Program-made: the position numbers and the translations under genes | In this document: positions 8,662 through 27,561 of the stretch, piece after piece | Layout: each line of letters starts with the position of its first letter | How positions within the stretch are numbered: the stretch's first letter is position 1 | Notes under the pieces: generated by a model | What the model was told of the DNA's origin: nothing | Database searches by the model: none | Seen by the model: the letters and a program-made list of their open reading frames with translations, nothing else | Source of the DNA: Octopus sinensis | Taxonomy: Eukaryota | Length of the DNA: 64,000 bases | Assembly: GCF_006345805.1 (NCBI RefSeq) | Contig: NC_043000.1 | Span: 88,722,001 to 88,786,000 of the forward strand | Direction: 5' to 3'

Positions 8662-8701
8662 TCCATTGAAAAGCTAATTTAAACGGCGAAAACCGGTTGG
8701 A
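8662..8701 (+). ncRNA. Variant hammerhead-like motif (UUGAAAA core)
   Basis: TCCA-TTGAAAA-GCT..GGC-GAAA-ACCGGT-TGGA, with (TA)n about 100 bp downstream. Confidence 0.45.
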
Positions 8702-8807
8702 TTTCACGAAATCCATATATGTATATATTTATAAAAAGCTATTAAACTATATGAAACGAATGCATTTCTCTTCCACGATATATATTTTCCCCCACATATC
8801 TTCAACC

Positions 8808-9072
8808 TATATATATATATATATATATATATATATATGTGTGTGTGTGTGTGTGTGTATGTGTGTGTGTGTGTGTGTGTGTGTGTGTGTGTGTGTGTAT
8901 GTATTTGTATATATATATGTATTGTATGTATATATATTTGTATGTATTTATATCTATATATATATATATATAATATATATATATATATATATATATATAT
9001 ATATATATATATTTGTATGTATATATATTATATATATATATATATATATATATATATATATATATATATATA
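8808..9072. repeat. (TA)n/(TG)n compound microsatellite
   Basis: Direct reading. Confidence 0.95.
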
Positions 9073-9250
9073 TGCCACCTTCTTTCTCGCCTGACCTTCT
9101 TGAGGTGTGGACGGCAATTTTCTTTGCTCCCTTCGCCGTTCACAGAAATAGCATTCGTAATACTTTTTTTTCGTTCGGCTTAACAGCCCTTCTTGTCTTG
9201 TTATTTTCCTTGTCCTGTCTTTTACTGCTCATATTTTGTACTGTCGTTAC

Positions 9251-9310
9251 TGTGTTCTTTATGCACCGTTACTCGTTTACGTAAACGAGTAACGGTGCAT
9301 AAAGAACACA
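9251..9310. repeat. Perfect 60-bp palindrome (second copy at 10623-10682)
   Basis: tgtgttctttatgcaccgttactcgtttac|gtaaacgagtaacggtgcataaagaacaca. Confidence 0.97.
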
Positions 9311-23390: not shown

Positions 23391-24063
23391 TTAGGGGCAT
23401 GTGTTTAGAAGTGGTCTGTATTTATTAATAAGGTGGGATTCCATGGTTATTCGCTGGGTATGAGTGGCATTGTCTTTAAATTTGTAGAGGGGAAAGATTC
23501 TAAAATTGGGATGGAGTTGTGCGGCACAGGTATCAATATGTGCACTAAATGCTATTTTTCTATATTCCTGTATTTTTATTTGGGATCTGTGGACAGTCAT
23601 GCGTTGGCGGAGGCTATTTTTTGTTTGGCCTATGTAGTGTTCATTGCAGCCCGAGCAAGTTAAGACATATACTAGGTTTTCTGATGCGCATGTGAAGTTG
23701 TGTTTTACTGTGAAACGTTGTCCTTGTTTAAAAAGGAATTCCGGACCTTCTATTAGGTTGATGCATATACCACAGTTGGGTCTATTGCATTTGTTTACTG
23801 TGGGTTTAGTTGTTGTGGTTGGCAGTACTTTGGCATTTGTTAGGATGGTTTTCAATGATTTGGGTTGCCTTTTGCTCTTTATGATTTCGTGTGTTAGGAG
23901 GATTTGGTTCATTCTATGGTCCTTTTGTAATACAGGAATGTTCTGGAGGATGGTGTCAAAAGCTTCATTGTTGAGGGGGTTGTGTGTAGAGATGTATGGT
24001 AGAGTATGGGGTTTCGATGTAACAGGTTTAGGGCGTCTAAGTTCCTGCGTGCTGAGTTTTAGG
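23391..24063 (-). pseudogene. PLE pol C-terminus: Cys linker and GIY-YIG endonuclease (frameshifted from RT near 24063)
   Basis: CNRPNCGIC, FTC, VYVLTCSGCNEHYIGQT, LRQRMTVH, ESHLI...LLN. Confidence 0.92.
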
Positions 24064-25706
24064 GCGCGTTGTCAATTAGTGACGTGGGGTAATCCCTGCT
24101 TGTTAATGTGCCCTTGAGTTCTTGTAGACGTAAGAGACGGGTGTTTTTATTGGAGACTATAGTGCAAATTCTCTTGGCTAAGTTGTAGGGAATGTTAATT
24201 TTAACGTGTCTAGGGTGGCATGAATTGAAAGGGAGGTATTGCTTGGAGTCTGTGGGCTTGTAGTATATGTCTGTTTCTATTTTTTTGTTGTGAATTTTAA
24301 TGAGGATGTCGAGGAAGGGAATTTGTTGAGGGCTGTATTCCATTGTGAAAATAATGTTTGTGTTGAGCCCATTTATAAGAGTGTGAAATTCGTTAAGCTT
24401 CTCGACGGTTTCGGGCCAAAGGATGAAGCAGTCATCAAGATATCTCTTCCAGTTCTTCTCTATGTGTGTGTGGAGAGTGGTGCCAAATTGGTTAAGAACG
24501 TTATTATAGAGGGTGATTTCCAGGTATCCCATGACTAAGTTGGCGTAAGTGGGAGCTGTTTTCGTTCCCATTGCCGTCCCTGATTTCTGTCTGTAGAATT
24601 TGTTGTTGAAGGTGAAGAAATTATTCTCTAAGATGAATTTGAGTCCTTCTAAAATAAATTCCTTTTTGATGCGGTGTGGGAGTTCGTTGGAGTAATTATC
24701 CAGCCAGAATTGGATAGCTTCTATTCCTAGGTTGTGGGGGATGTTGGAGTAAAGATTGACTACATCGAATGTTACTAGCAGGGTTTGTTCAGCAAGAAGT
24801 GTATTGGGGAGGTGGTTGAGCATATCTAGATCGTCCCTTATGTAGCTTTTAATGTGTTTGAGGAACGGCTTGAGAAGGGTATCAATGAAGTTGCTAAGGC
24901 GGTGGGTTTCGCAAGCGGGACCTGCTATTATAGGTCTCAATTTGAGGTCATTTGGTGAGGGGACATTGATTACAGAGTTTGTGGCTTCCTTGCATGCCTT
25001 ACTTATTAATTCGCTTTTATGAATTTTGGGAATACCGTAGAAGAGGCTGGTTTTACTAGTGAAATTTGTGATGAAGTTGAATTCTTTGTTAGTGAGTTCT
25101 TCTTTGTGGGGGTTGATCAGGGTTTTTAAGTTTCTCATAATTTTCTGTTGATTGTAGTGTTCAGCCTTTTCGTAATATGTTCCATTTTCCAAGGTGGAGA
25201 GTGCTAAGTTGATATAGTATTCTGTCTCCATTAAGACTACTGCACTTCCTTTATCGGCCTCTTTAATGGTGATAGATCTTTCATTTTTTAATTTGTTTAA
25301 TTCTTCCCACTCTTTCTTGTTGAGGTTTGGTTTGGGTTTTGGTTTGTGTAAGTGTTGGTAGGGGAAGTTTGTAATGTGCTCACAGAATTCGTCTAGGATT
25401 TTATTTCTACCTTTTCGTGGGGTGTAGTTGCTTTTATTTCTAGCTAGTGACTCATCCTCATTGTGCTGGTCGAATAGTTCCTCACTAAGTCGCAATTTTC
25501 TACAAAATTCTGTAATGTCTTCCTTCATTTCGTAGTAGTTTGGACGTGGGGGGGGTTGGTGTGAATTTCAGACCTTTGGAGAGTAAGTTGAGAAGGTTGG
25601 GGTTGGGTTCTGTATTGGTTAAATTGATGACTTTAATTAGTTTATGTTTCTCTTCCCTGTCCTGTGTTATTTTGTTTGCCTGTATCTGTGTGCTGTGTCT
25701 AAAAAA
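24059..25706 (-). pseudogene. PLE reverse transcriptase (pol), with a 1-nt frameshift in the C8 run at 25548-25555
   Basis: VINLT..LLSKGLKFTPTP, IKEADKGSAVV, FYGIPKIHK, LRPIIAG, FDVVNLYSNI, GTAMGTKTAPTYANL, RYLDD, FLDILI, YYKPTD..YL.F.SCHP. Confidence 0.95.
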
Positions 25707-26962
25707 TGGTTGGGGTAGAGGGGTTGTCTGTTGGTGTTAGGAGGTCCTGTGTGTTTGTTATATTCCTTGTTGTGAAATATGGTTCGGGTTCGTGGTTGTG
25801 GATAGAATGGGGTGTTCCTGTATTGCGGGTGTTGGTGTGTGTTTCTTTGTGTTGTGATGGATTGTGGTGATATGAGTGGATTGCGTGGGTGCTTGTATCG
25901 AGTGGTATGGGTTTGTTGTGTATTGTGAGAGTTGAGAAAGTGAAAATTACCTTGTTGTCCCCTCGTGGTGTGGATGTTGTTGTGTCTATCCTGGTAGTGG
26001 GATCCTCTTTTATTTGTTAATAAGGTATTCGAGTAGTTGTTGAGTTGTTGTGTATAGCGTCTCCTTGAAGAGGGAAATTCGTTAATGTAATTCTGGTGGT
26101 GAGAGTTTCCAGGGTTCTTGTTCCTCCTTATGGACGTGGGGTAAGAAGGTACATCTTCAATATGCTGTTTCCTTCTTTTGTTCAAGGTTGGAGGGTTGGC
26201 GGAGTAGTTGTGTGGTTGGGTTCCTGGTTTTCCCATTTTTATGAACGGGTTATTGGAAGAGTAATCCGTTTTGAAAGTCGATTCATAGTTTAGGAACCAG
26301 GCGGCACTTTTTTCCCAGCGTTGTGGGGATTTTAGTTCCTCTTTGTTGCAGTCATCTTTCCATAACTTGGAGATCTTCTCTATGTGTAGGCTTTCGGCCT
26401 TGTTATTTATTACGAGGAGGACCTCTTCATCGATTGTTTTGACTCTTTCCTCATTTGTTTGGGCCCTTAATTTGAGAAGTTCAATCTCTGTTTTCAGTCT
26501 CTCTAATGCCATTCTTTCCCTAAGTCGTCTTTGAGGTTCAGGTTCATTGGGAATGGCTTTTAATTGTATTTTGCGGGGAAGAGTTAGAGGAGTAGAGTTC
26601 ATCCATTTTTCGTATATCTCGGCCTTGTTGTTGTTTCTAATCATTTTCCAGAAGGAGAACTTTCTGTCTCTGAGGGATTTGTTCCATTCTGGGATTATAT
26701 GATTTTTCAGTTTGTATGAATCAATTTGACATGGTTCTTCTTTGTTTTTGGCTGGGTTGGTGGTGGTGAAAAAGGTGTGGATCGTATCACACAGAGTTTG
26801 TAGCTTATCGCCGATTTCGGAGGGTTTGTGTCCGGTAATGGTTTCCTCATTAGTAGAGTCCAATTTGTTGACTAGTACAGAGAGGTTGGTGTTGATGTTT
26901 TTGAGTTCCTGTAGGATTTCTTCGTTTAAGTTGATTAGGGTGGTTTCAGTTTTTGTAGGCAT
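25667..26962 (-). CDS. PLE ORF1: 431-aa protein with predicted coiled-coil N-half and basic N/H/Q/R-rich low-complexity C-half
   Basis: Uninterrupted ORF from ATG 26962, between the 5' pLTR and pol; heptad-like LINLNEEILQELKNINTNLSVLVNKL and ALERLKTEIELLKLRAQ. Confidence 0.75.
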   Translation of the reverse strand: MPTKTETTLINLNEEILQELKNINTNLSVLVNKLDSTNEETITGHKPSEIGDKLQTLCDTIHTFFTTTNPAKNKEEPCQIDSYKLKNHIIPEWNKSLRDRKFSFWKMIRNNNKAEIYEKWMNSTPLTLPRKIQLKAIPNEPEPQRRLRERMALERLKTEIELLKLRAQTNEERVKTIDEEVLLVINNKAESLHIEKISKLWKDDCNKEELKSPQRWEKSAAWFLNYESTFKTDYSSNNPFIKMGKPGTQPHNYSANPPTLNKRRKQHIEDVPSYPTSIRRNKNPGNSHHQNYINEFPSSRRRYTQQLNNYSNTLLTNKRGSHYQDRHNNIHTTRGQQGNFHFLNSHNTQQTHTTRYKHPRNPLISPQSITTQRNTHQHPQYRNTPFYPQPRTRTIFHNKEYNKHTGPPNTNRQPLYPNHFLDTAHRYRQTK

Positions 26963-27252
26963 TTTCTGTATCTCGTGCGGGGATATGATATTTAAAAAAA
27001 GGAGATGTCGAAAACGAGTGGTGATATATAAAAAAGGAAATGAAGAAAATGCTGACAAATAATTGAAGTAATTTAAGTAATTTAATTAGGTGAAAGTTCT
27101 TTTTACCGGTTGCGCATTTGTTATGCTTATCAAAATATAAAAGAGAGATTAGAGTTCCTTTCTTATAGAATTTTTCCTCTTATCTGACTTTATGTTGGGT
27201 TTTCTGTCTCTTATATGTGAAAAAAAGAGGCTCCTTCATAATGTGAAAAAAA

Positions 27253-27561
27253 GTGACCCCTTCATAATGACCAATCAAAATTTTAGGCGCGAAACCAAGC
27301 AAATCCAAAACAACTCTGGAGCCTCTTTTTTTCACATATAAGAGACAGCAAACCCAACATAAAGTCAGATAAGAGGAAAAATTCTATAAGAAAGGAACTC
27401 TAATCTCTCTTTTATATTTTGATAAGCATAACAAATGCGCAACCGGTAAAAAGAACTTTGACCTAATTAAATTACTTAAATTACTTCAATTATTTGTCAG
27501 CATTTTCTTCATTTCCTTTTTTATATATCACCACTCGTGTTCGACATCTCCTTTTTTTAAA
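27253..27561 (+). repeat. Inverted 5' pseudo-LTR
   Basis: Reverse complement of about 26990-27234 plus 22725-22790. Confidence 0.93.
27419..27448 (+). ncRNA. Variant hammerhead-like motif in the pLTR (also on minus at 27104-27133 and 22595-22624)
   Basis: TTGATAA-GCAT-aacaa-ATGC-GCAA-CCGG-TA. Confidence 0.5.

Follow-up and report, generated by a model that had tools for sequence, protein, structure and literature searches.

Does a hammerhead core with an altered base pair, shared by three otherwise different repeat families of an octopus, still belong to a ribozyme, and how do the versions found at a single locus relate to its intact form? The question is raised by a stretch of 64,000 nucleotides from Octopus sinensis (assembly GCF_006345805.1, contig NC_043000.1, positions 88,722,001 to 88,786,000), here called the window. 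A sequence-only reading had placed six copies of such a motif in it, in three families, and had assigned them to the pseudo-long terminal repeats (pLTRs) of Penelope-like elements (PLEs), as minimal type I hammerheads with a palindromic stem III. All six are present, at 8666-8697, 10141-10170, 11513-11542 and 27419-27447 on the plus strand and at 27133-27105 and 22624-22596 on the minus strand. Each carries a UUGANAA core, which, as had been predicted, a search for CUGANGA would overlook, and ACCGGU or AACCGGUU forms the palindrome in five of the six. They go back to three insertions only: a relic of family A, a duplicated family B-prime element (9074-11687) and, on the minus strand, an almost complete family C element (22515-27564), whose two pLTRs and inverted 5' copy account for three of the motifs. 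The assignment to PLEs is borne out by reverse transcriptase (RT), GIY-YIG endonuclease (EN) and pLTRs. The interpretation that we favour, and hold to be reasonably probable, is that these are U3-A8 minimal type I hammerheads in the pLTRs of one PLE clade, predicted to cut as dimers, and that the forms in the window are derived ones, likely weakened in families A and B-prime and nearly dead in family C.

Support for a conserved motif comes from pattern counts on the genome (2.72 Gb), in which core and palindrome were prescribed, stems I and II were left free, and both pLTRs of one insertion as well as some overlapping matches were counted. The window itself gave three matches to the pattern search against a shuffle mean of 0.01. 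Genome-wide, the intact GAAACCGGT form with a U3-A8 core has 10,394 matches (control 118), the form with an extra A 955 (control 43) and the GCAA form 1,663 (control 22), together about 13,000 exact matches (control 183), or roughly 70-fold more than the control patterns. Since the common form has an intact GAAA, the three forms in the window are best described as minority derivatives of that core.

The stems that the patterns left free point to a selected structure. The fetched loci (numbered with the prefix L), mostly from one chromosome-size contig, yielded 188 distinct motif contexts, which clustered into 30 groups, singletons and chance matches included. Conservation of the motif and covariation in stem II were the two features on which the sequence-only reading had staked its case beforehand, and both are found: stem II pairs at 58 of 90 positions across the 30 clusters, compared with 27.7+/-4.5 under the null and 17 of 90 in a slid control. 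As to the added claim that stem II always pairs, the copy at 8666 has three pairs only. For stem I the test covered the 18 GAAACCGGT groups and set aside the 12 extra-A and GCAA groups; with one unpaired base, position 17, there are 47 Watson-Crick pairs out of 72 against 26.6+/-3.8 with shuffled partners (none of 10,000 shuffles reached this), whereas the three slid registers stayed at the null, with 23, 14 and 20 of 72. The shuffles ignore kinship among clusters, so that these p-values are overstated. Position 17 in the GAAACCGGT class is A in 47, U in 17, C in 9 and G in one of 74 contexts, position 7 is A, C or U, as had been claimed, and the 10.1-11.1 pair is G-C in 10 of the 15 multi-copy clusters. 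Several families (L054, L108, L113, L116, L117; 3 of the 15 multi-copy clusters) close stem II with a U10.1-U11.1 mismatch instead, and family E has additional bases 3' of stem II.

The structural support stems from this comparison across families and not from folding energy, as the monomer energies of all five sequences folded were no better than those of shuffles (z from +0.93 to -1.17). Cofolding gave the dimer geometry for L105, B-prime and B and came close to it for D and F, with the palindrome pairing between copies in most families, a palindrome which the search pattern had itself prescribed. Rfam covariance models reported no hammerhead at E<=10 in positions 7000-29000 of the window, nor at E<=1 in seven loci that included C3-G8 copies; because the C3-G8 copies in L248 are missed as well, the silence of Rfam is uninformative. 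The features that are kept, namely the 3-8 pair, base 17 and the register of stem I, are the constraints of hammerhead catalysis, which argues that the minimal type I hammerhead fold deduced here is real and that the motif of the clade is likely a ribozyme.

That U3-A8 is a compensatory exchange for C3-G8, as first proposed, is supported by the occurrence of both pairs inside two families. The first is a family of 360-nt units with 246 matches, among the first 100 of which we counted 81 with U-A, 10 with C-G, eight with C-A and one with U-G. In its tree, the C-G copies adjoin a C-A copy (support 99 in the Shimodaira-Hasegawa-like approximate likelihood ratio test, SH-aLRT). The second is the D group, in which two loci have C-G in pLTRs that are 85-88% identical to U-A copies. 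Across the genome, C3-G8 with the same stem III has 266 matches (control 50), mixed 3-8 pairs with ACCGGU number about 652 by subtraction from 11,312, and a looser pattern, which left out other stem III lengths, picked up canonical cores in other families 6,527 times (control 1,869). In the RT tree, from which family A and the 360-nt family are absent as they have no RT, the seven sampled U3-A8 rows fall into one 16-row clade (SH-aLRT 97) together with nine database proteins. A metagenome scan for related elements, as a source of core states in other animals, gave 152 candidates, none of which was confirmed.

Both families deserve a brief description. The 360-nt family (L231-L260 and L284, e.g. 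L243:993-1714) is non-coding, has 48% GC, is arrayed in tandem and in inverted orientation, and carries a type I hammerhead whose stem I has 6 bp; it resembles a non-LTR retrozyme, and its U-A, C-A and C-G subfamilies coexist. In the D group, at L282:1113-1323, two pLTRs in inverted orientation are separated by about 200 nt; U3-A8 is found in one of them and C3-G8 in the other. At several D-group loci (L088:1883 on the minus strand, L192, L195, L281, L282), a tract rich in pyrimidines and a closing YAG make the end of the 5' strand of stem I look like a 3' splice site. An intron end maps to helix I in D. virilis (PMC4209133; the papers cited here by accession are represented by excerpts), by analogy with which splicing could remodel stem I in the D-group families.

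How, then, do the forms in the window depart from the intact motif? The extra A had been suggested to make the core non-cleaving. It is, in the first place, an extension of stem III: in sister subfamilies of B it forms an A15.2-U16.2 pair and position 17 is normal. Several B subfamilies have GAAA followed by an 8-nt palindrome, U or A and a 5-bp stem I, which is the canonical fold with a lengthened stem III. Families A and B are sisters in the EN tree (95/89), so that the extension has a single origin. In B-prime, one base was lost at the cleavage site after this extension. Its motif in the window (10136-10176, plus strand) consists of stem I 10136-40/10172-76, core 10141-47, stem II 10148-52/10156-60, GAAA 10161-64 and the palindrome, with one base fewer ahead of stem I than in the sister subfamilies; copy 2, at 11508-11548, is identical (core motif 11513-11542). 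This form, with one U fewer, makes up 66 of the first 100 of 735 matches, the others being 33 canonical and one of another kind. B-prime would keep its cleavage-site base only if the extra A is counted as inserted into the GAAA stretch. On any other reading base 17 is absent or is G, and minimal hammerheads in those states are impaired at least 300-fold (PMC3884650). A tolerated insertion of that kind, U13a, has a precedent (PMC3088659). G12-A13-A14-A15.1 is present in the majority families and in the B subfamilies with the 8-nt palindrome, while A and B-prime require the 1-nt insertion. Most family A copies share the insertion register of B-prime, with two pairs and then a bulge in stem I; stem II has four pairs in the family A copies outside the window. 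The window's own A copy (8661-8702, plus strand) has a U3-A8 core at 8666-8672, the 3-bp stem II already mentioned and GAAA-A-CCGGU, and no canonical cleavage-site register fits it. The A and B-prime forms are likely to be weakened. Subfamily F2 (L053, L112, L125) is likewise one base short between palindrome and stem I, and L112 has U3-G8.

For family C, a non-cleaving core is plausible. The motif in its 5' pLTR (26988-27234, minus strand; motif 27133-27105, about 140 nt upstream of an ATG) has U3-A8, a 4-bp stem II, G12-C13-A14-A15.1, ACCGGU and A17, and is repeated in the inverted copy of the pLTR (27253-27564, plus strand; motif 27419-27447); in the 3' pLTR (22515-22790, minus strand; motif 22624-22596), ACGG replaces CCGG and the palindrome is broken. 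Changes of A13 are reported to inhibit cleavage 10-100 fold (PMC4075628). With nine core and palindrome bases left free, family C gave 1,328 matches; of the first 100, 99 have C13 and 12 deviate anywhere in the nine bases (about 1.4% per base). A base other than C at position 13 was seen in just 14 matches of the family C type genome-wide, of which one belongs to another family; A13 is present in rare copies of family C (L075, L077). C13 lies on at least three flank haplotypes (23, 14 and 11 of 50 copies). Contigs from four sequencing runs, labelled as four organisms, show no variant at 5% or more within 27104-27133 while the flanks vary, two of the runs having few contigs. Pairwise divergence within the family is inflated by copies running into flanking DNA and was not used. 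Stem I has two contiguous canonical pairs, an alternative 6-bp helix covers U3 and U4, and position 2.3 differs between subfamilies (C in 29 and A in 16 of 50).

The nearest relative of family C in the EN tree is family D (100/99), which has an intact core and 1,875 matches. The pLTRs of the two no longer align outside the open reading frames (ORFs). In family D, A13G occurs in four and G12U in three of 100 copies (L261-L267); that four of 11 changes should be alike has a p of about 0.013, a rough value. Subfamily markers are common to the three G12U copies, and the A13G copies have no private marker in common. This is a hint that core-broken copies can propagate, and mutation hotspots would explain the changes equally well. 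Heterodimers with other families are an unlikely means of rescue for family C, judging by eye, because the stem I strands do not match. Taken on its sequence, family C has probably multiplied with a weak or dead ribozyme. The stronger statement, that it is a natural ribozyme-dead Penelope family with A13C fixed, the stem I register lost and more than 1,300 young copies in several related species, we put forward tentatively, as a possibility that is rather less than even.

According to the mechanism that we propose, two motifs in tandem pLTRs would pair via ACCGGU or AACCGGUU and so build stem III, and the dimer would cut the RNA of the element after position 17, slowly and perhaps aided by the element's protein. 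Selection would have held the core over long times, yet loosely, as core-damaged lineages still yield hundreds of copies; the motifs in the window would likely represent this ribozyme of the dimer type, loosely constrained and, in family C, weakened or dead. A number of observations weigh against this account. The copies compared in the shuffle tests are related and not independent events; families C, E and F2, L106 and the A copy in the window did not reach the dimer geometry on cofolding; and in a scan of a type III hammerhead, activity was rescued by a G3-C8 swap only (PMC9901934), so that even the U3-A8 majority may be slow. Tests for selection within families, on samples of copies that were found via the motif, were not significant (p=0.16 for C, 0.13 for D and 0.56 for B); in C, shared variants were seen at 1 of 29 sites in the motif and at 24 of 208 in the flanks. 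Family C retains all other core bases, stem II and the palindrome, and in 100 of its copies no subfamily with a broken core is seen to spread. A13 counts as one of the milder core positions (PMC4075628), and assistance by a protein could rescue the activity of family C.

Such points bring up the alternative that all three window forms cleave adequately in vivo, with C13 tolerated, the extra A bulged from GAAA, cleavage at U17 and a protein chaperoning the fold. We consider this unlikely, while granting that U13a can be accommodated (PMC3088659), that B-prime, the more frequent of the B forms, cofolds into a dimer whose stems I and II have 5 bp each, and that protein assistance has been demonstrated for one Poseidon element (PMC11167929). 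Family C is the obstacle, since it combines A13C, a 2-bp canonical stem I that varies at position 2.3 between subfamilies and a competing helix over U3-U4; its otherwise retained core, kept while the pLTR diverged from that of D beyond alignment, may reflect merely a recent fixation of C13. Alternatively, the fold could have been kept throughout the clade for a task other than catalysis, be it dimerisation of the RNA or recognition by the RT; the second of these was suggested by the sequence-only reading, and none of the present tests supports it. A non-catalytic role would accommodate the sharing of ACCGGU by otherwise unlike families, the spread of core-damaged lineages and the recurrent A13G and G12U in family D. 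It is nevertheless improbable, because the features that are kept (either Watson-Crick 3-8 pair, one unpaired non-G base 17, the exact stem I register) are those needed by catalysis, and because in one tested element reverse transcription starts elsewhere and core mutants insert normally (PMC11167929). Least credible by a wide margin is that the motif reflects chance or mere shared repeat ancestry without a selected structure. The monomer folding energies and the Rfam result could be cited in its favour, the latter carrying no weight for the reason given above; it runs counter to the roughly 70-fold excess over controls, to compensatory stems in unlike sequences and to the specificity of the register, and is refuted by the pairing tests on stems I and II together with the C-G copies of the D group, unless kinship of the clusters explains the pairing.

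How much of this is new? The sequence-only reading had taken U3-A8 for a new, lineage-specific variant, which it is not: U3-A8 has been published for the Cercyon PLEs of S. mansoni, with about 1,300 hits and UUGAAAA and UUGAUAA cores in the supplement (Cervera & De la Pena 2014, PMC4209133), and natural U3-A8 covariation has been reported as well (Perreault et al. 2011, PMC3088659). The swap itself is therefore known, and what is new is the scale, the presence of both 3-8 states within families, the fixation of core defects in young families and, above all, A13C. The PLE hammerheads described by Cervera and De la Pena, Cercyon included, resemble the octopus motifs in lying in both pLTRs, in their type I topology, short palindromic helix III, predicted dimer and diversity of families, and in sharing the UUGAAAA and UUGAUAA cores. 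In the octopus, by contrast, the palindrome of stem III has 6 or 8 nt, the extra base between positions 9 and 10.1 is missing from most families, U10.1-U11.1 occurs in several, and U3-A8 is the majority state for this stem III (10,394 versus 266); a fixed A13C and the loss of a base at the cleavage site do not figure in the excerpts of that paper (PMC4209133). The natural core variants of Perreault et al. include U3-A8 covariation, the U13a insertion in the GAAA stretch and the U10.1-U11.1 mismatch, whereas A13C is not among the variants named in the excerpts and none is described there as fixed in multi-copy retrotransposon families (PMC3088659).

Among endonuclease-bearing (EN+) PLEs, the Neptune and Nematis types (Craig et al. 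2021, PMC8557442) are alike in having an RT followed by a C-terminal GIY-YIG domain, a CX2-5CxxC linker and a GxKF motif, as well as pLTRs with a hammerhead, an inverted 5' copy and TA-repeat flanks. The core strings searched for in that study were cuganga and gaaa, and the octopus motifs would fail both; its authors called the function of PLE hammerheads unclear and considered that they may be mere parasites of the elements. The Poseidon element of Anolis (Frangieh et al. 2024, PMC11167929) likewise has a pLTR hammerhead beside the start of its ORF. Its core is canonical C3-G8, its cleavage required protein and was not required for insertion in vitro, and this dispensability was established with engineered mutants in vitro, whereas family C would be a natural genomic case; the probable multiplication of family C with a weak or dead ribozyme agrees with it. 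Non-LTR retrozymes (PMC7229834; bioRxiv 10.64898/2026.07.22.740005) carry a type I motif, as does the 360-nt non-coding tandem family, which lies outside the window; U3-A8 is not mentioned in the passages searched on these retrozymes. A literature search whose coverage left out most subscription papers found no report of the octopus motifs or of a fixed A13 variant. Luense et al. reportedly surveyed a very large number of Penelope hammerhead variants, and that survey may cover the present ones.

The elements themselves can be delimited as follows, all on the plus strand up to the family C element. The family A relic is the 3' end of a PLE, a pLTR of 230 nt at 8579-8806 that terminates at a TA microsatellite and is 78-86% identical to the family A loci L100, L102 and L104. 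Copy 1 of B-prime (9074-10315) is 5'-truncated, with an inversion junction at 9251-9310, an EN remnant at 9321-9485 and a 3' untranslated region/pLTR, and is 98.9% identical to L012; its tandem duplicate (10446-11687; EN remnant 10592-10858) is 99-100% identical and has the same inversion junction. The family C element encodes, on the minus strand, an upstream ORF at 25667-27085 (472 aa stop to stop, first ATG at 26962), for which no confident Pfam match was found and which has homologues in families B-prime, D, E and G, a Penelope-type RT of 502 aa at 24059-25567 (Pfam RVT_1, E=1e-7), whose homologues include Octopus proteins with 67% and 58% identity, and a GIY-YIG EN at 23391-24071 (Pfam GIY-YIG, E=7e-7) with a CX4CxxC linker. 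RT and EN lie in different frames in this copy and in a single 748-aa frame in the family D copy L088. Related GIY-YIG domains had been noted in two of the three families; a related EN in fact lies upstream of the motif in all three, family A copies elsewhere having it 116-278 nt upstream. The EN alignment places a CX4CxxC linker in families B, C, D and E. With its RT, C-terminal GIY-YIG, pLTRs and inverted 5' copy, family C shows the features of EN+ PLEs, and by the CX2-5CxxC linker definition (PMC8557442) it fits the Neptune/Nematis type.

Other repeats surround these insertions. The inverted pair at 27640-28260 is decayed and belongs to a repeat family of which copies elsewhere have a canonical C3-G8 core (82% to L066). 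Nested inverted repeats beside microsatellites, at 18654-20089 (93%, with no match among the fetched loci) and 16226-16640 (78%), are possibly the ends of other elements. A 723-aa frame on the minus strand at 48971-51142 (RVT_1, E=2e-32, and a weak zf-RVT match) is an RT of the long interspersed element type, unrelated to hammerheads; inspection by eye added decayed relatives near 31400-32100 and 60500-60900, as well as a remnant resembling a transposase at 61074-61956. A dispersed 200-nt repeat family resembling short interspersed elements (70-79% identity) occurs at 702-921, 8126-8367, 14301-14516, 48309-48556, 51489-51880 and 58442-58611.

For the biology of Penelope elements, the present genome offers both forms of the 3-8 pair within single families, mismatched intermediates included, and about 13,000 motifs that descriptors built on CUGANGA and GAAA overlook. 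Sister families with intact (D) and damaged cores (C, and B versus B-prime), all recently multiplied, make the need for a hammerhead testable with short RNAs. If family C is indeed ribozyme-dead, its stem II and palindrome would survive as a relic or serve as a handle for dimerisation, and, with B-prime and A, the family would prove from the genome that Penelope elements can move in vivo without hammerhead cleavage.

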